The notes beneath the pieces were generated by a model that saw only the letters and a list, made by a program, of their open reading frames with translations, was not told where the DNA came from and made no database searches. A DNA stretch of 64,000 bases from Desulfovibrionales bacterium (lineage in GTDB: Bacteria; Desulfobacterota; Desulfovibrionia; Desulfovibrionales; Desulfovibrionaceae), in contig JASGMV010000001.1 of the NCBI GenBank assembly GCA_030156255.1, positions 46,935-110,934 of the forward strand, read 5' to 3'. Shown piece by piece: positions 51,074 to 61,134 of the stretch. The first letter of the stretch is position 1. Every line of letters starts with the position of its first letter. Both the position numbers and the translations under genes were made by a program.

Positions 51074-53254
51074 ATGGAGAAGATTCGCGTCGCCGTCGCA
51101 GGCCAGCCCAACTGCGGGAAAAGCACCATGTTCAACGCCATCACCGGGGCGACCGCGCGCGTCGGCAACTATCCCGGCATCACGGTCGACCGGCTGGAAG
51201 GCCGTTATCGCATGGACGGATTCGACATTCAGTTGGTGGATTTGCCCGGGACCTACTCGCTCACCTCGTACTCCCTGGAGGAGGTCGTCGCCCGCGACAT
51301 GATCGTGGACGAACGCCCCGACGCCGTGCTGTGCATGATCGATGCGACGGCTCTGGAGCGGAGCCTCTACCTGGTGATCCAGCTCATGGAAATGGAAATT
51401 CCCGTGGTCATCGGCCTGAACATGATGGACGAGGCCAAGCGCAAGGGAATCCGCATCGACACGGCCAAGTTGTCCCGACTTCTGGGCGTTCCCGTGGTGG
51501 AATGCGTCGCCCGCCTCGGCGTGGGCAAAGACCTGCTCATGAAGGAAGTTGCGGCTACGGCGGCCAAACACGCCCTCAATTTCGAACCGATCAAAATCTC
51601 GTACGGCGCGGACCTCGATCCGTTCGTCGACCGGATGGTGGAGTTGATCGAGGCGGAAATTCCCAAGGGAAACCGTCCGCCCGCAAGGTGGCTGGCGACG
51701 AAGCTCCTCGAAGGCGATGAAATCATCGCCGAGAGGATGCACGCGCACGGCTCCATAGCCGACAGGCTGGAAAAAATCACCGCCGAAGCCGAAAAAGCGA
51801 TGGAGACGCGCACGGGCTCCTATCCGGAAGCCATCATCGCGGACAGGCGCTACGGTTTCATCAACGGCCTCGTGCGCCAGGACGTTCTGTTCCGCGAAAG
51901 CGACCTGCGCTTCGACTTCTCCGACAAGGTCGACAAGGTCCTCACGCACCGCATTCTGGGACCGCTCATCATGCTGGGCGTGCTGTGGACCATGTTCTAC
52001 ATCACCTTCACGCTGGGAGCCGCGCCGCAAGGCTGGGTCGAAGACGGCTTCGGCTGGCTCGCCTACCTGGGATCCACCTACATCCCCGAAGGACTGCTCC
52101 AGTCCCTGATCGTCTCCGGAATCATCGACGGCGTGGGCGCGGTGGTCAGTTTCGCTCCGCTCATTCTGATCATGTTCGTCATGCTGGTCTTCCTGGAGGA
52201 CCTCGGCTACATGGCCCGCGTCGCCTACATGGTGGACAAGGTGTTCCGCATCTTCGGGCTGCACGGCATGTCCGTGATGCCGCTGGTGATGTCCGGCGGC
52301 ATGCCCGGCGGCTGCGCGGTGCCCGGCGTCATGGCCGCCAGAACGCTGCGCAGCCCTCGCGAACGGTTGGCGACCATCCTGACCGCGCCGTTCATGGTCT
52401 GCGGCGCCAAGACCACGGCCTACATCATGCTCATCGCGGCATTCTTCCCGCAGAACGCCACGCTGGCCATGTTTCTCGTCGTGCTCACGTCCTGGTTCTT
52501 CGTGCTGGTTGTCGCCCGCATCCTGCGCTCGACGGTCATCAGGGGCGAGCATACGCCTTTCGTCATGGAGCTTCCTCCGTACCGGCTGCCCACGGTGCGA
52601 GGCGTGGCGATCCACGCCTGGGACCGGGTCTGGCAATATTTGAAGAAGGCCGGCACGGTCATTCTGGCGGTCTCCATCTTCATGTGGGCGATGATGACCT
52701 TCCCCCAGTTGCCGGAATCGGAAACCGCGGAATTCGACGCGCAGCGCGAACAAGTCGCCCAACAAGTCCAGGCGGAAAACTCCGGCATGGACGCCGCGCA
52801 AATCCAGGAGCTGATCGACCAGAGAACCCTGGCTATCGACGAGTTGGAGAGTGAAACCGCTCTCAAGAACTCCATCGCCGGGCGCGTCAGCATGGCCATC
52901 AAGCCGGTGACGGATCTCGCCGGATTCCCCTGGCAGGCCAACATCGCCTTCGTGGGCGCCTTCGCGGCCAAGGAAGTCTTCGTTTCGACCATGTCCACGG
53001 CCTATTCCATGGGCGACGTCGATCCCGAGGAATCCGCGTCCTTGAGTGAAAAAATCGGAAACGACAAAGCCTGGACGCTTCCCGTCGTCTTCAGCGTGTT
53101 CCTGTTCATGCTGATGTATACGCCGTGCATGGTTACCGTTGTGGCCATTGCGCGGGAATCCAATTGGAAATGGGCGGCTTTCTCGGTGTGGGGAATGCTG
53201 CTCTTCGCATTCGCTGTCTCCACGGTCGTTTATCAAGTGGGATCAGCGCTATAA
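51074..53254 (+). CDS. feoB: Ferrous iron transporter FeoB (copy 2)
   Basis: 'GQPNCGKST', 'NYPGITVDR', 'DLPGTYSL', 'GLNMMD', plus membrane domain. Starts 3 nt after feoA2. Confidence 0.95.
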   Translation: MEKIRVAVAGQPNCGKSTMFNAITGATARVGNYPGITVDRLEGRYRMDGFDIQLVDLPGTYSLTSYSLEEVVARDMIVDERPDAVLCMIDATALERSLYLVIQLMEMEIPVVIGLNMMDEAKRKGIRIDTAKLSRLLGVPVVECVARLGVGKDLLMKEVAATAAKHALNFEPIKISYGADLDPFVDRMVELIEAEIPKGNRPPARWLATKLLEGDEIIAERMHAHGSIADRLEKITAEAEKAMETRTGSYPEAIIADRRYGFINGLVRQDVLFRESDLRFDFSDKVDKVLTHRILGPLIMLGVLWTMFYITFTLGAAPQGWVEDGFGWLAYLGSTYIPEGLLQSLIVSGIIDGVGAVVSFAPLILIMFVMLVFLEDLGYMARVAYMVDKVFRIFGLHGMSVMPLVMSGGMPGGCAVPGVMAARTLRSPRERLATILTAPFMVCGAKTTAYIMLIAAFFPQNATLAMFLVVLTSWFFVLVVARILRSTVIRGEHTPFVMELPPYRLPTVRGVAIHAWDRVWQYLKKAGTVILAVSIFMWAMMTFPQLPESETAEFDAQREQVAQQVQAENSGMDAAQIQELIDQRTLAIDELESETALKNSIAGRVSMAIKPVTDLAGFPWQANIAFVGAFAAKEVFVSTMSTAYSMGDVDPEESASLSEKIGNDKAWTLPVVFSVFLFMLMYTPCMVTVVAIARESNWKWAAFSVWGMLLFAFAVSTVVYQVGSAL

Positions 53255-53283: not shown

Positions 53284-53709
53284 ATGCAGGCCGCCAAATT
53301 ACAGACAACGCCTGGCCGATCCAAAAAGTCGATGTTCGACTATCGTGAAATCAGGTCTTTCGAACTTGCGGACGACCTGGTCACCATAGCGAGCAGATTG
53401 CACAAAATCTACATCCGGATGGACGCGCACAACGTCTTGCAGAAGTTGAAACATCGGACGGTCGATCTCTCCATCAATGTGGTCGAGGCGACCTCGCTGC
53501 AAGACCATCCGGAAAAGGCGCTGCTCTTTGAGATGTCTTTCGAGTCACTCAAGGACGTTCGCTACGAATTGAGCAAAGCACGCACGCTCGGCCTCTGCAG
53601 CGAACCGGAGTTTTTCCACTCCTACAAGATCGTCAATGAATTGGAGCGGAACCTTTGTTCGCTCATAGCCTCATCCCAACGCAAAAAGCTGCTCGCAGCC
53701 CAAGGATAA
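53284..53709 (+). CDS. Divergent four-helix-bundle protein (23S rRNA-IVS-protein-like family)
   Basis: 'LKHRTVDLSINVVEATS', 'FEMSFESLKDVRYELSKARTLG' fit the family pattern I recall (sQlrRAa.SI..NIaEG / GS..El...l). GGAGG precedes ATG 53284. Confidence 0.55.
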   Translation: MQAAKLQTTPGRSKKSMFDYREIRSFELADDLVTIASRLHKIYIRMDAHNVLQKLKHRTVDLSINVVEATSLQDHPEKALLFEMSFESLKDVRYELSKARTLGLCSEPEFFHSYKIVNELERNLCSLIASSQRKKLLAAQG

Positions 53710-53723
53710 GTAACGAGCAATCG

Positions 53724-56054
53724 ATGCCGAAAAACAAAGACATCATCATCCGACACGACATCAGGGGCCGGATGCGCCTGAAGATCCGGTCCCTGAAAAA
53801 CAAAGAGGCCGCCTCGAACGTGACGGCCTCTCTGCAACGCCTCGACGGGTTGCTCTGGGTCCGGGCCAACCCGGCCTGCGCCAGCCTGGTCTTGGGCTAC
53901 AACCCGGAGGACATCCAACGGCGGGCGCTCCTGGAGCGCGTCAGCGCCGCCGTCGGGGCGCCGCCGCCGGTGCAGTCGACGGCGCCCTGCGGCGCGAAAA
54001 CCAAGGAAAAACGCCCGGTGCGGCGGGCCTTCAGGCGGTTCGCAGCCATCACGGCCGTGCTGGGCGCGGCCGTGTTCAGGTCCTCGGTCCTGGGCCTCGC
54101 CGTCGGCCAGACCCTGGCCAGCCCACTGGGAGTCGCCGGCCTGATCTTCAGCGCCCCGCTGGTCCGAAGCGGGATCAGGAAGCTCAAAAGCGGGCGCCTG
54201 AGCCTGGACGGCTTTCTGGCGGCCGGCGCCGTCGCGGCCATCACAGCCGGCGAGGCGCTGACCGCCTTTGAAATCTTGTGGATCAACTCCGGCTCCGAGC
54301 TGCTGACGGCCTGGATCGCGGAGCGCTCCCGCCGTAGCATCGCCGAAATCCTCGAAATCACGTCCCACCATACCTTCGTGCTGCAGGACGGCGTGGAGGT
54401 GGAGCGGGCCGTGAGCGAGGTGCGGCCTCAAGAGATCGTGGTGCTGCACACCGGAGAGAAAATCTCGGTGGACGGCGTGATCGTCGAAGGCGAGGCCGAG
54501 ATCAACGAGGCCCCGCTCACCGGCCGGGAGGAGCTTGTCAACCGAGGCGTCGGCGAGACGGTTTACGCCGGAACCTTCGTGTACAAAGGCGTGATCCAGG
54601 TGCGGGCCGAAAAAGTCGGCGACGCCACGTATCTGGCCCGCGTCATGCGCAAGGTTCAGGACGCCCTGGAGAATCGGGCGCCCATCGAGGGCGTGGCCGA
54701 CCAGTTGGCTCAAAGCCTGGTCCGGATCGGATTCGCTACGACGGCCGCAACCTTCCTGTTGACGGGCAGCGCCTGGCGCGCCTTCACGGTGCTGTTGGTC
54801 ATGGCCTGCCCGTGCGCCACGGTGCTCGCGGCCTCCACGGCCGTCAGCGCGGCCATCAGCGCGGCGGCCAGGCGGCGCATCCTCATCAAGGGCGGCCGCT
54901 ACCTGGAGGAAATCGGCAAATGCGACACGGTCTGTTTCGACAAGACCGGCACGCTGACCACGGCCCGCCCCATGGCGGCGCTCATCCTGCCCGAGGACGG
55001 CGTCGACGAACGGGAGCTGCTCCAATTGGCCTGCTCGGCCGAAATCCACAACCACCACCCGCTGGCCCAGGCCCTCAAGGAGGCCGCCGCGCGCCGAGGC
55101 TTGGAGCCCATCCCGCACGCCGTGTGCGTCTACTTCATGGGCATGGGCATGCGGGCGGTCATCCAGGAGCGGGAAATCCTGGTGGGCAACGACAAGCTCG
55201 CCGAAACCTTCGGCGTCGACTTCGGCGCCCGGACGCCGGAAATCCAGCGTCTCAGAAACCAAGGATATACCGTGCTCCAGGTCTACCGCGACGCGGAGCC
55301 CATAGGGCTTCTGGCCTTCGCCTCCCAGCTTCGGCCCGAGGCTGCGAACGTAATCGAACGCTTGAAGTCCATGGGCGTCAAGCGGTTCATGCTCGTCACC
55401 GGCGACGAGTACGGCTCGGCGAAACCTCTGGCGGACAAGCTCGGCATTACGGAAGTGCAGGCCTCCATCATGCCCGAAGACAAGGCCCGTTTCGTGGAAC
55501 TCGAAATGGAGCAAGGCCGCAAGGTGCTCATGGTCGGCGACGGCGTCAACGACGCCCTGGCGTTGAGCCGGGCCGACGTCGGCGCGGCCATGGGGACGAG
55601 CGGCTCCGAGGTCGCCATCGAGGCCGCGGACATCGCCTTGGTCAACGACGACCTGGAGGCGCTGGCCGACGTCTACGACCTGAGCCGGCGAACCCTGCGC
55701 GTAGTCCGGCAGAACTTCTGGATCGCCACGGGCTCCAACATCGCCGGCGCGGCCCTGGGCGCTCTCGGGCTTTTGTCCCCCGCGGCCGCCGGGCTCGTGC
55801 ACATCGGGCACACCCTGGGCGTTCTGGCCAATTCGTCCCGACTTCTCTCCTTCTCCACCACCAATTCGCCCGCCAAGGGCGCCGCCACCGGAGCGATGCA
55901 TGGACTTCCAAACACTAGCCAACCTGCGGCGCTATTTGACCGTCAAACACCACATTCCGGGCAGAATCCGCCTGAAGTTCAATCCGGCCGTGACGAAGCA
56001 CCCGGAAGTGAAAAAACTGATGAACGGCAATCACGAATTGCCTGCGGGTGTTGA
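53724..56054 (+). CDS. P1B-type heavy-metal ATPase, CPC type, with non-CxxC 'RGRMRLK' N-domain
   Basis: 'ACPCA' in TM4, 'FDKTGTLT', 'GDGVNDALAL', 'TGRE' in place of TGES, last TM 'HIGHTLGVLANSSRLL'. The N-terminus 'IIIRHDIRGRMRLKI' has no CxxC. Confidence 0.9.
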   Translation: MPKNKDIIIRHDIRGRMRLKIRSLKNKEAASNVTASLQRLDGLLWVRANPACASLVLGYNPEDIQRRALLERVSAAVGAPPPVQSTAPCGAKTKEKRPVRRAFRRFAAITAVLGAAVFRSSVLGLAVGQTLASPLGVAGLIFSAPLVRSGIRKLKSGRLSLDGFLAAGAVAAITAGEALTAFEILWINSGSELLTAWIAERSRRSIAEILEITSHHTFVLQDGVEVERAVSEVRPQEIVVLHTGEKISVDGVIVEGEAEINEAPLTGREELVNRGVGETVYAGTFVYKGVIQVRAEKVGDATYLARVMRKVQDALENRAPIEGVADQLAQSLVRIGFATTAATFLLTGSAWRAFTVLLVMACPCATVLAASTAVSAAISAAARRRILIKGGRYLEEIGKCDTVCFDKTGTLTTARPMAALILPEDGVDERELLQLACSAEIHNHHPLAQALKEAAARRGLEPIPHAVCVYFMGMGMRAVIQEREILVGNDKLAETFGVDFGARTPEIQRLRNQGYTVLQVYRDAEPIGLLAFASQLRPEAANVIERLKSMGVKRFMLVTGDEYGSAKPLADKLGITEVQASIMPEDKARFVELEMEQGRKVLMVGDGVNDALALSRADVGAAMGTSGSEVAIEAADIALVNDDLEALADVYDLSRRTLRVVRQNFWIATGSNIAGAALGALGLLSPAAAGLVHIGHTLGVLANSSRLLSFSTTNSPAKGAATGAMHGLPNTSQPAALFDRQTPHSGQNPPEVQSGRDEAPGSEKTDERQSRIACGC

Positions 56055-56217
56055 AAGCTATCGGATCAATCCCATGGCTCTCTCCCTCATTATCGAATAC
56101 GACGCCGAGCGCATCGATCCGGACCTGCTCGAAGAGCTCGCCGCGACTCGAAACGACGAACGCGCGTCCGCCATTGTCGAAGAACTTTATCAAACCCTGA
56201 TGCATCCAACCCAATAA
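55900..56217 (+). CDS. Stand-alone 'HIPGRIRLKF' HMA-like domain protein
   Basis: Shares the N-domain of both ATPases ('HHIPGRIRLKF....V..L......GV.SYRINPMALSLIIEYD'). Overlaps the ATPase-1 tail by 155 nt in another frame. Confidence 0.65.
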   Translation: MDFQTLANLRRYLTVKHHIPGRIRLKFNPAVTKHPEVKKLMNGNHELPAGVESYRINPMALSLIIEYDAERIDPDLLEELAATRNDERASAIVEELYQTLMHPTQ

Positions 56218-56229
56218 GGAGGCGATACG

Positions 56230-57180
56230 ATGAGCAGTCAGCACATGTCCATGCAACCCCAAACAGGCTCCTCCGGCTGCGGCGAAGACGCGGCCGGAGG
56301 CGGCGCCGGGCCGGCCATGCAGCCCCAACAAGGCCAGGGAGGCTTCAACGGCTCGGTCGCGCAGGGAGCGTTCATGGGACAAGGCCAAGCCCAAGGGCAG
56401 AACCCGAGCATGGGCCAGGGGCAAGCGGCCGGCCACCCCCAAGAGGCGGCCCAAGGCGCCTACATGGGGCAAGGTCAGGACGGCGCCCAAGGCCCCGACA
56501 TGGGGCAGCCCCATTTCTCCGCGCAAATTCCCGGCGCCGCGCCCTACCAGGGGCAACCCGGAGCCTTCGTCTACGGACAGCCCATGGCCGGCTACTACTC
56601 CATGGGCGAACAGCAGGCCGGCAGGCAAGCCGGCATGCAGGGATTCGGCGGCGACGCCATGGGCGCGCAAGGCGGATACGCTCCTCAGGCGGGCGCCATG
56701 GGCGGATACGCCGGCGCCTTCGCGCAAGCGCCCGGAAACGGCGGCGCTCCGGGGATGAATCCCGGGCAAGCCATGTATGGGGGCCAGGTTTTCGCCGGCC
56801 AGCAGGGCTCGGCCATGGACTACGCCCAGGCCATGGGCCGGCAATACGCCGCGAGCGCTCCGGGAGTCCAGATTCCCGGCGCATCTCCGGGATACGGACA
56901 GGAAAACCGGTACGGCGAGCTTTACGGATTGATCCAGGAAGCGGCCAACGGCAATCCTGACGTTTCCAAATTTCTTAATTTCTTCACCCAATCCAGCACG
57001 GAATTCTGGAAAGGCGCTTTGATCGGAACCGGCCTGACCCTGCTTTTGACCAACGATACGGTCAAGGGCGCCCTCTCCGGAGCCTTCGCCAGCGTGTGGG
57101 GGGCCTTTGGCAAGAGCGCCGAGGAAATGGAGGAAGAAGAAGACCGTAAAGCCGAGCAGCGCCTCGCCAACAAGGAGTAA
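56230..57180 (+). CDS. Gly/Gln/Met/Ala-rich low-complexity protein with C-terminal membrane-anchor domain
   Basis: AAGGAGG precedes the ATG. About 235 aa of '(F/Y)MGQGQ'-type repeats, then 'FWKGALIGTGLTLLLTNDTVKGALSGAFASVWGAF' and an acidic tail. Confidence 0.7.
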   Translation: MSSQHMSMQPQTGSSGCGEDAAGGGAGPAMQPQQGQGGFNGSVAQGAFMGQGQAQGQNPSMGQGQAAGHPQEAAQGAYMGQGQDGAQGPDMGQPHFSAQIPGAAPYQGQPGAFVYGQPMAGYYSMGEQQAGRQAGMQGFGGDAMGAQGGYAPQAGAMGGYAGAFAQAPGNGGAPGMNPGQAMYGGQVFAGQQGSAMDYAQAMGRQYAASAPGVQIPGASPGYGQENRYGELYGLIQEAANGNPDVSKFLNFFTQSSTEFWKGALIGTGLTLLLTNDTVKGALSGAFASVWGAFGKSAEEMEEEEDRKAEQRLANKE

Positions 57181-57183
57181 AAC

Positions 57184-57594
57184 ATGAGCATCGTCAGACA
57201 GACCAGCATCGCGCCCCGGGCCTCCCTGGCCATGGGAGCGGCAGGGGCCATCGTAGGCGGCGCCGTGGCCGCGGCCCGAGATATCGACAAAGTCAAAAAA
57301 GGCGACATGACCCGCGAAGAGGCGGTCAAGGACGTACTGAAGGAATCCGGAACCACGGGACTGGCGACAGCCGCGGCGACGGCGGTGGTCAGCTCCCTGG
57401 GCCTTACCGGCGTTCTGTCATTGGCCGGCCTCGTGGCTGTGGCCGTGGGAACCAAACGCCTGGCGGACAAGGCGTTGGCGAAGTGTGAAACGAAACGCCT
57501 GGCCGAAGGCGAATCGGAGGCCAGCGAACCCCTGAAATCCGCGCCGGCCAAAAAATCCACAACCAAAAAAGACGGCGCAGCGGCCAAGGCCTAG
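57184..57594 (+). CDS. MamC-like two-TM Gly/Ala-rich membrane protein
   Basis: 'GAIVGGAVAAARDIDKVKKGDMTREEAVKDVLKESGTTGLATAAATAV' resembles '[47 protein letters not shown]' of MamC as I recall it. Confidence 0.6.
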   Translation: MSIVRQTSIAPRASLAMGAAGAIVGGAVAAARDIDKVKKGDMTREEAVKDVLKESGTTGLATAAATAVVSSLGLTGVLSLAGLVAVAVGTKRLADKALAKCETKRLAEGESEASEPLKSAPAKKSTTKKDGAAAKA

Positions 57595-57614
57595 CCGCCC
57601 GAGGAGTATCCACC

Positions 57615-57944
57615 ATGAGCCAAGACACCAAGACCCCGGCGCTTCCGCCCGCGGACTACAACTACCAGTACAACTACGACCCGAGCTACGCCCAGTCCCA
57701 GGCCGCGGCCTATCCCTACTACAACCAGCCGTCCGCGGTGAAGAGCTGGTTCGACTTCAGCAACGCGAACTACGCCAAGGGCTTCGTCATCGGCGCCGGC
57801 GTGGCCCTGGTCCTGGCCAACCCGGCCGTGCAAAAGGCCATCGTCTCCGGAGCCGTCAAGCTCTGGTCCGGCGTCCAGGGCGGCGTGGAAGAGGTCAAAG
57901 AACGCATTCACGACATCAAAGCCGAAATGAGCTCCAAGGAGTAG
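57615..57944 (+). CDS. Tyr/Asn/Gln-rich N-terminus + membrane-anchor domain, paralogue of 56230..57180
   Basis: 'YAKGFVIGAGVALVLANPAVQKAIVSGAVKLWSGV' aligns with the C-domain of the upstream protein. GAGGAG precedes the ATG. Confidence 0.65.
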   Translation: MSQDTKTPALPPADYNYQYNYDPSYAQSQAAAYPYYNQPSAVKSWFDFSNANYAKGFVIGAGVALVLANPAVQKAIVSGAVKLWSGVQGGVEEVKERIHDIKAEMSSKE

Positions 57945-58034: not shown

Positions 58035-58286
58035 ATGAGTTCAACGAAAAAACGTACGGGCCAGACCGGTAGTCCGTCCAAATCCGGGACTTCCGGCCTG
58101 AGTACGGCGCAATCCCGGGCTCTGGCCAAGGCCGGCATGACCGCAAGCCTCGGCGTGCTGATCTGGACCGGATTCGATCAAAGCCGCGGCGCCCGCAGGC
58201 TGCACCGGCTGGCGGGCGTTTCCCTGGTCGGTTTCAGCGTCTGGCACCATATGCTCTACCCCAAAAAATCCGGAAATTCCTCATGA
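58035..58286 (+). CDS. Small two-TM membrane protein with His pair, coupled to the downstream ATPase
   Basis: AGGAG lies 7 nt before the ATG. 'MTASLGVLIWTGF' and 'LAGVSLVGFSVWHHMLY' are hydrophobic segments. The stop overlaps the ATPase start (ATGA). Confidence 0.55.
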   Translation: MSSTKKRTGQTGSPSKSGTSGLSTAQSRALAKAGMTASLGVLIWTGFDQSRGARRLHRLAGVSLVGFSVWHHMLYPKKSGNSS

Positions 58287-60409
58287 CCCGACGGCCCCCT
58301 ACCAACGGCTTGCGAATCATCCACCAGATTCCCGGGCGGGTGCGCCTGCACGGGGCGCGGCTCAGGGACCCCAATCTGGACATCGATTATCTGAGAGCCC
58401 TTCTGGAAGCCATGCCCGGCGTGCATTCCGTCCGGATCAACCAGGCGGCCGGAAGCGTGGTCATCCGACACGACAACGCAACCCATTGCGTGGACGACTT
58501 CATGCTGGCCCTTTCCCGGCTTCCGAAGGACGCCTATCTGCCCAATACGGAGGCGGACACCGGGCCGGACTTGCTGGAAGTCGCGGCCCACGCCGGAGCC
58601 GCCGCCCTGACGCCGTTTCTCCCCATGCCGATCCAAGCGGCGATGAGTTGGTTCCTCGCCGCGCCGTCCCTGGTCAAGGGGGCGGAGACCCTGCTCGCAC
58701 GGGGATTGAAAATCGAGGTGCTGGACGGAACGGTCAAGCTCCTGGCCCTGCTGCGCCAGGACTACTTCACCACCAACACCGTGGGCGCCCTGCTGGTTCT
58801 CGGCGAATACGTGGAGCGCTCTGCCGAGCGAAAAACCAACGATCTGCTCAAGAACCTGCTCCAGCCCCAGGTGGAGACCGTCAAGGTCGAGCGGGACGGC
58901 GTGGAGCGAATCATTCCCTTCGACCAGGCGCTCATCGGCGACGCGGTCCTGGTCGGCCCCGGGGAGCTCATCCCCGTGGACGGCGTGGTCGCGGAGGGGG
59001 AAGCGTCGGTCAACACCAGCTCGGTCACGGGGGAATCCGCCCCGGTCCACGCCAAACCGGGCGACAAGGCGATCTCCGGCTCCGTAGTGGAGGACGGCAA
59101 GATCAAGATCACGGCCGAGTCGGTCGGGGCGGAAACCAGCATGGCCCGCATTTCCGGATTCCTGGAAAAGTCCCTGCGCACGAAGTCCACGCATCAGAAA
59201 CGCACGGAAGAGCTGGCCGACAAGCTGGTCCCGCTGACCTTCGGCGCGGGACTCGGGCTGTACGCGCTCACCGGAGATTTGCGCCGCGCCGCCTCGGTGC
59301 TGACGGTGGACTACTCCTGCGCCATCAAGCTGAGCTATCCCGTGGCCGTCCGCTCGGCCATGTACGCGGCCGGCCGCGAGGGCGTCCTGATCAAGGGCGC
59401 CGCCAGCCTGGAGCGCCTGGCTTCGGTGGACGCGTTCGTCTTCGACAAGACCGGCACCCTTACCCACGGGGAATTGCAGGTCACGGACGTAGTCTCCCTG
59501 TCCGCATTCGAAGAAAACGAAATATTGGCCCTCGCGGCCGGAGCGGAGGCCCACTACGGCCATCCCGTGGCCGCGGCCGTGGTTTCGCGGGCCAGGGCCC
59601 TGGGCCTCAAATTCCCGGACATGAGCAACGTGGACTTCATCGTGGCCCACGGCGTGTCCGCCTACGTGGACGGCGCCCGCGTCCTGGTGGGCAGCCGCCA
59701 CTTCATCCACGACGACGAAGCCGTGGACTGCTCCCGCGCCGATACGGCGGCCAGCCGGCTTCGGGATCAGGGCAAGTCCCTGCTCTACGTAGCCAGAGAC
59801 GGAGAACTGGCGGGGCTCATCGCCATGCGCGACGACCTGCGCCTTGAAGCGGCCGAAAGCCTGCAGGCGCTCAAGGACATGGGCGTGGTGAAACTCGTCG
59901 TCCTTACCGGCGACCACGAAAGAACCGCCCAGGCCGTCTGCTCGCAGCTGCCGATGCTCGACGAAGTGCACGCGGAGCTCAAGCCCGAAGACAAGGCCGC
60001 CGTGGTGGAGAAACTCAAGGCCGAGGGGCGCCGGATCGCCTTTGTGGGCGACGGCGTCAACGACGCCCCGTCGCTTTTGGCCGCGGACGTGGGCGTATGC
60101 ATGCCCTCGGGCGCGGACCTCGCCCGGGACGCGGCCCAGGTCGTGCTCATCAAGGACGACATCCGCGGGCTGGCCCTGGCCTTGGGCGTCGCCCAGCGAA
60201 CCATTCAAACCCTGCAGCGGTGCGTGTGGAGTTCGGTGGGCGTCAACAGCGCCGTCATGGCTCTGGCCGGCGCCGGCCTGCTGCCCACGGCGCTTTCCGC
60301 AGCCGCCCACAACGGCTCAACCCTCGGCATTCTCGCCTACGCCGCCCTGCGCGGCGTCAACACCCCAGCCACAGAGGACATTCGCCCCCCCAGGAGTTTT
60401 CCATGTTGA
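58283..60409 (+). CDS. fezB: P1B-6-like heavy-metal ATPase (FezB-like), 'SCA' TM4 motif
   Basis: 'DYSCAIKLS' TM4 motif, 'SVTGES', 'FDKTGTLT', 'GDGVNDAPSL', last TM 'AAHNGSTLG'. N-domain 'IIHQIPGRVRLHG' without CxxC. Subclass and symbol rest on my recollection of the SCA signature. Confidence 0.85.
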   Translation: MTRRPPTNGLRIIHQIPGRVRLHGARLRDPNLDIDYLRALLEAMPGVHSVRINQAAGSVVIRHDNATHCVDDFMLALSRLPKDAYLPNTEADTGPDLLEVAAHAGAAALTPFLPMPIQAAMSWFLAAPSLVKGAETLLARGLKIEVLDGTVKLLALLRQDYFTTNTVGALLVLGEYVERSAERKTNDLLKNLLQPQVETVKVERDGVERIIPFDQALIGDAVLVGPGELIPVDGVVAEGEASVNTSSVTGESAPVHAKPGDKAISGSVVEDGKIKITAESVGAETSMARISGFLEKSLRTKSTHQKRTEELADKLVPLTFGAGLGLYALTGDLRRAASVLTVDYSCAIKLSYPVAVRSAMYAAGREGVLIKGAASLERLASVDAFVFDKTGTLTHGELQVTDVVSLSAFEENEILALAAGAEAHYGHPVAAAVVSRARALGLKFPDMSNVDFIVAHGVSAYVDGARVLVGSRHFIHDDEAVDCSRADTAASRLRDQGKSLLYVARDGELAGLIAMRDDLRLEAAESLQALKDMGVVKLVVLTGDHERTAQAVCSQLPMLDEVHAELKPEDKAAVVEKLKAEGRRIAFVGDGVNDAPSLLAADVGVCMPSGADLARDAAQVVLIKDDIRGLALALGVAQRTIQTLQRCVWSSVGVNSAVMALAGAGLLPTALSAAAHNGSTLGILAYAALRGVNTPATEDIRPPRSFPC

Positions 60410-61134
60410 GCAGCATCGACAAAGCGCCCGTGAACACCCCTCTCGTCATCGCCGAGATCGTTCATCAGGATCTGGCCGACAGGCTCGGGCGGTTGGACGT
60501 ACAGCCCGGCGACGAAGTCATGCGTATGGATGAAGAGGCGCTTTTCGGGCCGGTGCGCGTCCGCGGCCCCATGGGCGAAGTCATCCTGGCCGCGGGCATG
60601 GCCGCCAAAATCATCGCCCACCACGACGACGGGCACAAGACTCCGGTGCTGGAAATGAACCCCGGAGAGCAAGGCCACGTCGAGGGGTTGATCTGCGGCT
60701 CCGCCCTGGAGCAGGGCCTCGCCGTGCTGGGCATCCGCGAAAACGACAACCTGACCATGGTGCGCCGCATCCCGCCCATGGAGTACCAAGTGGTGGTGGA
60801 CGGCAAACGCGTCCACCTCTCCGAAGGCGCCGCGGCCAAGGTTTGGGTCAAGATGGGCGAGACCTTCACCCAACTGGCCTCGGCCGGCGCCGGGAGGCCC
60901 TTGCGCGTAGAGCTTCTGCTCGGAGGCAAACGGGCCTACGCCCATCTCGAATCTCTGGGCGTGGCGCCCGGAAAGACCGTGGTCGTGGAGCGGGTGGACC
61001 CGGCCCAGAGGGTGGGCCGCGAAGGCGTGGACCAAGTGGTCCTGGGCGCCGCCTCGGGCCTGCGGGTCTACCTCCGCCCCGACCAGGCCCAGAAAATTCT
61101 GGTGCGGGTGAAGGACGACAAAACGCGCGCCTGA
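60403..61134 (+). CDS. Protein made of three tandem FeoA-like domains
   Basis: Three ~75-aa units, each with the 'G....V..L...........L..LG(I/V).(P/E).G/N...V' FeoA pattern. CAGGAG precedes ATG 60403. 7-nt overlap with the ATPase. Confidence 0.8.
   Translation: MLSSIDKAPVNTPLVIAEIVHQDLADRLGRLDVQPGDEVMRMDEEALFGPVRVRGPMGEVILAAGMAAKIIAHHDDGHKTPVLEMNPGEQGHVEGLICGSALEQGLAVLGIRENDNLTMVRRIPPMEYQVVVDGKRVHLSEGAAAKVWVKMGETFTQLASAGAGRPLRVELLLGGKRAYAHLESLGVAPGKTVVVERVDPAQRVGREGVDQVVLGAASGLRVYLRPDQAQKILVRVKDDKTRA

Follow-up and report, generated by a model that had tools for sequence, protein, structure and literature searches.

Introduction

Ferrosomes are lipid-bounded bacterial organelles with an amorphous ferrous-phosphate mineral, and nearly all of the fez gene clusters encode proteins with a GxxxG motif, which may bend membranes (10.1101/2020.01.10.902569). 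These proteins are listed as "Group 2 (GxxxG motif)" Fez proteins in Supplementary Table 4 of that preprint by Grant et al.; among them, FezA of D. magneticus (Group 2-4) was one of the three proteins most enriched in purified ferrosomes, and a C. difficile member in Group 2-2 is probably also FezA (10.1101/2020.01.10.902569). In a later preprint, furthermore, both FezA and FezB are stated to be required for ferrosome formation, and FezA and FezB of C. difficile were the only fez genes of that species expressed in a ferrosome-forming E. coli system. In this study, we examined a stretch of 64,000 nucleotides (nt) from a metagenome-assembled genome (MAG) of Desulfovibrionales bacterium (contig JASGMV010000001.1, positions 46,935 to 110,934; hereafter called the window), in which two open reading frames (ORFs) encode proteins of 316 and 109 amino acids (aa), A316 and C109. 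Very probably, they represent Groups 2-3 and 2-1, respectively, of the GxxxG-motif proteins in a large fez cluster and are encoded in a co-transcribed cassette, and both carry a low-complexity N-terminal tail of conserved composition.

Subgroup 2-3 is characterized by xFWKGAxxGA and mostly by lengths of 183-440 aa, and it includes Dde_0491 as well as Dsarc_02800 and a Desulfocarbo protein of 339 aa each; subgroup 2-1 has a YLKGxxxGAGVAL-type signature and lengths of ~100-190 aa, and it includes Dde_0493, Sputcn32_3194 (S. putrefaciens), and RPA2334 (R. palustris) (10.1101/2020.01.10.902569). These Group 2-1 members are among the genes lost when whole operons were deleted in S. putrefaciens and R. 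palustris, and the genes Dde_0490-0494 are placed, in this order, in Groups 3-1, 2-3, 4-1, 2-1, and 3-3, with Dde_0495 also given in the preprint (10.1101/2020.01.10.902569). Like the Group 2 proteins, A316 and C109 are encoded in a fez cluster beside the P1B-6 ATPase FezB and are small proteins with a GxxxG-bearing hydrophobic helix; namely, A316 has the 2-3 signature xFWKGAxxGA, C109 has the 2-1 signature YxKGxxxGAGVAL, and the lengths of both fit as well. The studied FezA members are, however, short, and the hydrophobic region of D. magneticus FezA is N-terminal, whereas the module of A316 and C109 is C-terminal and stands behind a disordered domain.

Three other systems can also be compared with A316 and C109. 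YtxH-like proteins (PF12732 / COG4980 "GvpP") share a Gly-rich hydrophobic helix, a Pro break, and charged amphipathic helices with them, but YtxH proteins carry the helix at the extreme N-terminus, have no low-complexity tail, and are not fez-specific, and A316 and C109 remain below the Pfam threshold. The magnetosome proteins Mms6, MamG, and MamD have a variable N-terminal region, a Gly-rich hydrophobic segment, and an acidic C-terminal tail and are encoded alongside MamC. The architecture of A316 and C109 is similar, and a MamC-type protein with two transmembrane (TM) helices is encoded next to them in an iron-organelle cluster; nonetheless, neither protein matches a magnetosome family in NCBIfam or Pfam or has Leu-Gly repeats, and the mineral is amorphous iron phosphate but not magnetite. 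The third comparison class consists of FUS-type prion-like domains and synapsin-type disordered regions that cluster vesicles. The tails resemble this class in being polar, uncharged, and rich in Gly, Gln, and Pro, with interspersed aromatic and Met residues and almost no Lys/Arg or aliphatic residues, but they are not a classical Q/N prion domain (Q+N ~15-19%), although in low-GC (guanine plus cytosine) relatives they are rich in Asn, Gln, and Tyr.

Results

A316 and C109 share a C-terminal module

The two genes and their parts are as follows, where AF2 stands for AlphaFold2 and pLDDT for its predicted local distance difference test score.

56230..57180, + strand: A316 gene, a 316-aa GxxxG-motif Fez protein, very probably of the Group 2-3 family of Grant et al. 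(ORF, Shine-Dalgarno sequence, synteny, and motif xFWKGAxxGA)
56230..56907, + strand: low-complexity N-terminal domain of A316, aa 1-226, rich in G/A/Q/P/M/Y (composition, but not sequence, kept family-wide)
56491..56559, + strand: short linear motif in the A316 tail, GPDMGQPHFSAQIPGAAPYQGQP, aa 88-110 (in-frame conservation across loci)
56908..57180, + strand: conserved C-terminal module of A316, aa 227-316 (alignments, AF2, and profile search)
57004..57054, + strand: hydrophobic GxxxG helix of A316, FWKGALIGTGLTLLLTN, aa 259-275, with a 13-aa hydrophobic core (hydropathy, hydrophobic moment, and Hessa sums)
57615..57944, + strand: C109 gene, a 109-aa GxxxG-motif Fez protein, very probably of the Group 2-1 family of Grant et al. 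(ORF, Shine-Dalgarno sequence, and 51 homologues with a highly conserved module)
57615..57740, + strand: N-terminal tail of C109, aa 1-42, rich in Y/Q/P/A and predicted to be disordered (composition, AF2 pLDDT, and family tails)
57741..57944, + strand: conserved module of C109, aa 43-109, with SWFxFSN, the YAKGFVIGAGVALVLANP helix, an amphipathic helix, and the acidic heptad-like helix VEEVKERIHDIKAEM (alignment and AF2)

Both ORFs lie exactly at the coordinates given in the first-pass annotation of this DNA, in which the two products were proposed to be paralogous through a C-terminal module. Indeed, the C-terminal regions of A316 and C109 were aligned over 68 aa with 32% identity (BLASTP E=9e-8), and a profile-profile comparison of the two families gave a probability of 97.8% and E=8e-13 over 62 columns. 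While the shared C-terminal part was thus borne out, its extent was not; the module is longer than first described, starting from around aa 227 in A316 (NRYGELYGLIQEAANGNPDVSKFLNFF...) and around aa 43 in C109.

The module of A316 is composed of two amphipathic helices, a hydrophobic helix with FWKG and GxxxG, a Gly/Ala-rich helix, and an acidic tail, and G21, F39, W40, K41, G42, and G46 (alignment positions) are invariant in the alignments of its family (A family). In the alignment of the C109 family (C family), W45, Y53, K55, G56, E92, E93, K95, E96, D100, A103, and E104 are invariant, and G60 is conserved in at least 90%. The GxxxG motif is hence found in both proteins, as K-G-ALI-G in A316 and K-G-FVI-G in C109, and the tail helix of C109, VEEVKERIHDIKAEM, combines a 3-4 spacing of hydrophobic residues with invariant acidic residues. 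AF2 predicted four helices for the A316 module (mean pLDDT 71) and, for C109, a helix at 51-68, a break at Asn-Pro, and a helix at 70-108 (mean pLDDT 58).

No family was hit above the threshold when A316 and C109 were scanned against Pfam and NCBIfam, and only sub-threshold matches to YtxH, DUF5132, and Gly-zipper families were obtained for the two families. A profile search of the PDB gave no match at E<=1, and no structural relative was found in the PDB with Foldseek, the best match having E=5.

Occurrence in fez clusters

The genes were described at first pass as lying inside an iron-organelle cluster, and the signatures of the ATPases, the Pfam and NCBIfam matches, and the gene order confirm that it is a fez cluster. 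The upstream ATPase was used to query 185,579 species genomes, which gave 65 loci, almost all from Desulfobacterota; given that this ATPase is of the FezH type, the scan sampled the FezH-containing "large" fez clusters. Hidden Markov models of both families were then run on all ORFs of the recovered loci. The order of HMA_2 protein, A-family protein, MamC-like protein, C-family protein, and 83-aa protein is repeated in ~55 of the 65 loci, and FezH and FezB flank this cassette in 48 of 67 sequences, most of the others being cut by contig ends. In the recovered loci, both families invariably keep one order and have FezH on one side and FezB on the other. The closest species-representative genome has 62% identity in the ATPase, and the order of Dde_0490-0495 in the genetically tractable D. 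alaskensis G20 is identical to that of the cassette in the window. Furthermore, an exhaustive search of 1.84 billion representatives with the profile of the A316 module retrieved 543 relatives (E<=1e-3), and in nearly all of the best 150 of these, the module is C-terminal or almost so.

The module is therefore present in other fez loci, as seen from the synteny and also from the tables of Grant et al.; Dsarc_02800 and the Desulfocarbo protein match the A-family ORFs of our loci L036 and L049 by organism and length (339 aa), not by alignment. Absence of the module from such loci had been named at first pass as a ground for rejecting the idea, and this ground thus falls away. The module and its association with fez are, in other words, already catalogued by Grant et al. 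and are not new.

Low-complexity N-terminal tails

The N-termini of the two proteins were described at first pass as unrelated, low-complexity tracts, which is correct for both and holds across the family; the units quoted from A316 are also present there (FMGQGQ, SMGQGQ, YMGQGQ, and GGYA twice), together with DMGQPH. Residues 1-250 of A316 are composed of 24% Gly, 16% Ala, 16% Gln, 8% Pro, 7% Met, and 5% Tyr, and aa 1-226 contain no Lys, two Arg, five Asp, and four Glu residues (D+E ~4%). In C109, aa 1-45 comprise 18% Tyr, 16% Ala, 13% Pro, 11% Ser, and 11% Gln. Tandem Repeats Finder detected no tandem array at the DNA level in the tail region, and the tracts are thus compositional but not recent repeats. 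When disorder was checked, pLDDT in AF2 was below 50 for aa 1-39 of C109. The spacing of aromatic residues (Tyr/Phe) in the A316 tail is marginally regular, with a coefficient of variation of the gaps of 0.65 versus 0.88 in shuffled sequences (P=0.07), and that of Met gave P=0.015.

An N-terminal extension of at least 80 aa was found in 121 of the 148 best representatives of the A316 family. The pooled tail composition is G 16.6, P 14.8, Q 12.8, A 12.5, S 5.9, M 5.2, and Y 5.0%, with medians of 2% for K+R, 3.8% for I+L+V, and 6.6% for D+E. A-family ORFs in the recovered loci are mostly 176-606 aa, with N-terminal regions of ~60-530 aa rich in Gln, Pro, Gly, Ala, Met, and Tyr; in genomes of 31-38% GC, the tails are instead rich in Asn, Gln, and Tyr, with Asn substituting for Gly and Ala. 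In the C109 family, 49 members have tails of 29-91 aa with Q 14, A 13, P 13, and Y 12% and a median of one K+R residue. Across GC contents from 31% to 71%, the tail composition is conserved, and the tails are a property of the family but not of chance. Neither disorder nor low complexity nor MamC is mentioned in the text of the preprint 10.1101/2020.01.10.902569, and full-text literature searches combining ferrosome with "intrinsically disordered" returned nothing relevant; the tail is a conserved and apparently undescribed feature of these Fez proteins.

Within the A316 tail, the motif GPDMGQPHFSAQIPGAAPYQGQP is conserved in Desulfovibrionaceae MAGs, Desulfobotulus, and Maridesulfovibrio. Its consensus, GPDMGQPHFSxQxPGAAPYQG, is in frame in 11 distinct loci of several genera and is also found in ~17 representatives, and the variable sites at codon positions 1, 2, and 3 number 5, 5, and 11. 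Such a bias toward the third position indicates selection on the motif at the protein level, and the motif is probably a specific binding site.

Some A-family orthologues have other local features in or near the tail. Directly before the module, many of them have a His- or Cys-rich patch (e.g., HPKHDAHQYG and GGCGCG/CSCG), while in others, a CED/CEE motif that aligns with C17 of A316 is located close to the N-terminus; examples are P0004, P0007, and P0008 and the loci L004, L006, and L056. The patches and the CED/CEE motif are possible, putative metal-binding sites, and the region before the module in A316 is without them.

Translation of the long ORF

The ATG codon of A316 is 12 nt past the stop codon of the upstream gene, and AAGGAGG (56216-56222) is located 7 nt before it; similarly, GAGGAG is found 8 nt upstream of the C109 start. 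Among the long ORFs of the A family, the median gap to the upstream gene is 19 nt, and Shine-Dalgarno-like sequences are present in 37 of 56. In 56 loci, including genomes of 31-38% GC, the frame is open over ~100-530 codons. The GC content of the genome examined here is ~62%, but the short gap to the upstream gene, the Shine-Dalgarno sequence, and the open frame at low GC indicate that the tails are translated and are not an artefact of a GC-rich frame. Dde_0492 and Dde_0493, which are orthologues of the MamC-like protein and C109, have been detected by shotgun proteomics (PMC7376266).

The public annotation of the A316 family is inconsistent and often shortened or mislabelled. At L007 (12615-13382), for example, NCBI gives a 109-aa product from an internal start (P0001) versus a 255-aa ORF with a strong Shine-Dalgarno sequence, and the names of family members in IMG include "collagen, type II, alpha," "polyadenylation factor subunit 2," and "Gas vesicle protein."

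Hydrophobic segment

Both proteins had been called membrane-anchored at first pass, but a true TM anchor is not predicted. The uniformly hydrophobic stretch is only 13 residues long in each protein, GALIGTGLTLLLT in A316 and GFVIGAGVALVLA in C109. The helix after it has an amphipathic character in C109, and in A316 it is rich in Gly and Ala. When insertion energies were summed on the Hessa scale, in a simplified form ignoring position dependence and snorkelling, the 13-mers were around zero (+0.5 kcal/mol in A316), while the 17-19-mers amounted to +3.7 to +7.3 kcal/mol, the 19-mers being +7.3 in A316 and +6.5 in C109; TM2 of the MamC-like protein gave +1.2 for comparison. On this simplified scale, neither protein has a canonical single-pass anchor, i.e., about 19 or more residues with an apparent free energy near or below zero. 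Kyte-Doolittle values in 19-residue windows likewise never exceeded 1.0 in A316 and reached a peak of 1.6 in C109.

Neither A316 nor C109 has a signal peptide. By inspection of the sequences, furthermore, the charges flanking the hydrophobic helix are nearly balanced on both sides, and the positive-inside rule thus gives no orientation.

Neighboring genes

The other genes of the cluster and its flanks are as follows.

51074..53254, + strand: ferrous-iron transporter FeoB, 5' to the cluster (Pfam FeoB domains in the called gene)
53284-53709, + strand: 141-aa protein encoded after feoB and ahead of the FezH-type gene (weakly similar to four-helix-bundle / 23S rRNA-IVP proteins, E=0.003-0.007)
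53655..56054, + strand: FezH-type P1B ATPase with ACPCAT / HIGHT (Pfam and NCBIfam matches and signature motifs; the start given by gene callers is 53724)
55900..56217, + strand: small HMA_2 / R-rich protein, 105 aa, FezD-like, Group 3-1, directly 5' of A316 (Pfam HMA_2 E=5e-11 and synteny)
57184..57594, + strand: MamC-like protein with two TM helices, 136 aa, Grant Group 4-1, between the paralogues (NF038051, PF26373, and synteny)
58035..58286, + strand: 83-aa small protein at the cassette position of the Group 3-3 protein Dde_0494 (homologues in 57 loci and cassette position)
58283..60409, + strand: FezB, P1B-6 ATPase with DYSCAIK / HNGST (Pfam and NCBIfam matches and signature motifs)
60403..61134, + strand: FeoA-domain protein, closing the cluster (Pfam FeoA E=1.2e-19 and gene call)
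61169-62536, - strand: 455-aa NicO/DsbD_2-like transporter, flanking the cluster (similarity)

The cluster accordingly runs in the order of FeoB, the weak four-helix-bundle protein, the FezH-type ATPase, the HMA_2 protein, A316, the MamC-like protein, C109, the 83-aa protein, FezB, and the FeoA-domain protein. The ATPases were typed from their TM signatures against the tables of Grant et al., with DYSCxxK / HNxxT as the pattern tested for FezB, and two different pumps were found to bracket the small-protein cassette: the FezH-type ATPase upstream and FezB downstream.

The motif HHIPGRIRLKF of the HMA_2 protein agrees with the Group 3-1 entries of Grant et al. This gene begins, in another frame, inside the FezH-type ORF; the 155 nt shared with the 3' end of that ORF (55900-56054, + strand) include the conserved HHIPGRIRLKF motif. 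Likewise, in six other loci (L004, L006, L010, L014, L045, and L048), the ATPase ORF extends 41-149 nt beyond the start of the motif, and one gene caller omitted the HMA_2 gene.

The MamC-like gene starts only 3 nt past the stop codon of A316. Its 136-aa product matches NCBIfam NF038051 with E=1.2e-13 and 51 bits at model positions 11-94 of 97, the equivalog cutoff being 100, and a precomputed match to PF26373 (MamC) is recorded for the window protein and for all 40 homologues. The neighbor is, by sequence, a homologue in the MamC family but not a MamC equivalog. Homologues were found in 60 of the 67 sequences scanned and are syntenic, and Dde_0492 is placed in Group 4-1 (10.1101/2020.01.10.902569). 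The presence of a MamC-like gene in the fez cassette is a link between ferrosome and magnetosome proteins worth following.

A 403-aa protein, P0200, looked like a natural fusion of the A-family module with the MamC-like protein and seemed to fix the C-terminal tail as cytoplasmic, but was rejected as an artefact. P0200 stems from EukProt transcriptome data for a ciliate, Plagiopyla frontata, and the Gln at its junction is at the position of a stop codon in the related locus L041, which fits a bacterial transcript translated with a ciliate genetic code. Together with P0208 and P0209 of the same EukProt set, it represents bacterial fez transcripts deposited as ciliate proteins, the source of which is probably a sulfate-reducing associate of this anaerobic ciliate. 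The isoforms P0200, P0208, and P0209 differ in the copy number of a perfect QSQPFQGQMQQPVY repeat, showing that these tails change by expansion and contraction of repeats.

Several loci, namely L012 (12621-16100), L015, L019, and L023, encode one more P1B ATPase, their third, past the main cassette; its signature is DFACAVK. It adjoins MamC-like and HMA_2 genes on the minus strand in L012, L019, and L023, and a weak C-like ORF is also found in L012 and L019, which suggests that this neighborhood is a second, smaller fez-like module.

Discussion

How A316 and C109 would act at the ferrosome membrane can be pictured as follows, although we hold this picture only tentatively and put it slightly short of an even chance. 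Each protein would enter the membrane by a short Gly-zipper helix, FWKG-ALIG-TGLTLLL in A316 and YAKG-FVIG-AGVALVL in C109, after which come a polar break (TND or NP) and an amphipathic helix. The hydrophobic segment is unlikely to cross the bilayer by itself; given the 13-residue core and no signal peptide, it would most likely insert from the cytoplasmic leaflet or pack against TM helices of the ATPases and of the MamC-like protein, which is translationally coupled. Both the acidic C-terminal tail and the disordered, Lys/Arg-free N-terminal domain would then be left on the cytoplasmic face, where the tails of 45-530 aa, rich in Gln, Gly, Pro, Ala, Met, and Tyr, may form a dense and weakly self-associating polymer layer. 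Such a layer could act as a wedge and exert steric pressure to favor and stabilize the strong membrane curvature that arises as a vesicle buds into the cytoplasm, could space or cluster ferrosomes, and could recruit partners through the GPDMGQPHFSxQxPGAAPYQG motif.

Several points nonetheless weigh against this picture. Short TM helices do exist, and the confidence of AF2 is moderate, as the mean pLDDT values of C109 and the A316 module indicate. We infer the membrane association of A316 and C109 by analogy, from their membership in one family with the ferrosome-enriched FezA, and also the topology and the role of the tails; indeed, the depletion of Lys and Arg would fit a translocation of the N-terminal tail into the lumen equally well. 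Moreover, GxxxG proteins with no low-complexity tail suffice for ferrosomes in other species, and any role of the tail in curvature is hence not essential to the organelle. D. magneticus FezA and the C. difficile Group 2-2 member, with 86 and 131 aa, respectively, are apparently too short for such tails (10.1101/2020.01.10.902569), and the tail would therefore be accessory but not a core nucleator.

The membrane-anchored scaffold or nucleator put forward in the first-pass annotation can be spelled out as a model in which the helix would span the membrane with the N-terminus out and the C-terminus in, and the Lys/Arg-free tail in the ferrosome lumen would serve as a gel-like matrix nucleating iron phosphate or keeping it amorphous. 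Low Lys/Arg content is a requirement for translocation of an N-terminal tail independent of a signal peptide, and the tails are nearly devoid of both residues (none and two, respectively, in 226 aa of A316; family median 2%). The helix is, furthermore, uniformly hydrophobic but not amphipathic, the mineral is amorphous and vivianite-like with its nucleation unexplained, and the His/Cys patches adjoin the module in many orthologues; disordered matrix proteins rich in Pro, Gly, Gln, and Met, such as SM50 of the sea urchin, are also known to stabilize amorphous biominerals. Tails of up to 530 aa would, however, need to cross the membrane with no signal peptide, and the 13-aa core with its unfavorable 17-19-mer windows (+3.7 to +7.3 kcal/mol) is hardly that of a spanning helix. 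Nor do the tails have strongly cation-binding or phosphate-like chemistry, carboxylates being few (D+E ~4% in A316 and 6.6% as the family median), and the same kind of mineral forms with the GxxxG proteins of 86 and 131 aa. A lumenal nucleator of iron phosphate is thus less likely than a tail on the cytoplasmic face, and we regard it as doubtful.

Equally speculative is the idea that the tails form a membrane-attached condensate or gel, which might be either a lumenal matrix keeping ferrous phosphate amorphous or an outer coat bending the membrane and clustering vesicles, with the conserved motif as a docking site; we consider it unlikely at present.

It is likewise improbable, to a similar degree, that only the C-terminal module is functional, the tails being tolerated, fast-evolving spacers or pro-regions that are possibly processed and have no sequence-specific role. 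Processing has been reported for Mms6-type magnetosome proteins. The tails are indeed hypervariable in both sequence and length (A family, 100-530 aa; C family, 29-91 aa), the repeat copy number varies between transcript isoforms of one organism, the 86- and 131-aa GxxxG proteins work in other species, and some gene callers call the short form alone, as with P0001 of 109 aa in place of the 255-aa ORF of L007. A mere spacer would, on the other hand, hardly retain its composition from 31% to 71% GC, with Asn replacing Gly and Ala at low GC, or persistently exclude Lys, Arg, and aliphatic residues; also, the 23-aa tail motif is conserved across genera under purifying selection, and the tail has been kept independently in both paralogues.

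Far less plausible is a view of A316 and C109 as generic stress or membrane proteins of the YtxH/COG4980 type (GvpP-like) that happen to lie beside fez genes and have no ferrosome-specific role. Two close relatives of C109 are named "YtxH domain-containing protein" in NCBI, weak matches to YtxH were obtained in 23 of 51 C-family members (best E=0.003), and one Group 2-3 member is called "Gas vesicle protein" in IMG. The match of C109 itself, however, amounts to 10.7 bits and E=0.77 versus a Pfam cutoff of 37.5, A316 and 38 A-family modules have no match, and the invariable arrangement of both families in the recovered loci, in one order and enclosed by FezH and FezB, as well as their recovery by Grant et al. 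as conserved members of fez clusters, is not that of incidental neighbors. Least plausible of all, and in our view safely set aside, is an annotation artefact of a GC-rich genome in which the true start is near the module and no low-complexity domain is made; long spurious ORFs do occur at ~62% GC and some public annotations use internal starts, but the strong AAGGAGG 7 nt before the ATG at 56230 and right after the upstream stop, the frame open in 56 loci including genomes of 31-38% GC, the mostly synonymous variation of the in-frame motif, and the lengths of 183-440 aa given by Grant et al. for most of the family all speak against it.

To our knowledge, GxxxG proteins are the only non-transporter components needed for ferrosome formation. 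The invagination of the ferrosome membrane is stated in the literature as an open question, and control of the amorphous, oxygen-sensitive ferrous-phosphate mineral is likewise unexplained. What is added here is that a disordered domain, conserved in its composition and harboring a conserved motif, is part of the two largest GxxxG subfamilies, that these are co-encoded with a MamC homologue, and that their hydrophobic segment is short and non-canonical. If the tails did form a condensate or gel, they would be the first disordered-protein phase organizing a lipid-bounded bacterial organelle. The tail, the motif, and the short segment make the shaping of the ferrosome membrane and the control of its mineral experimentally approachable.

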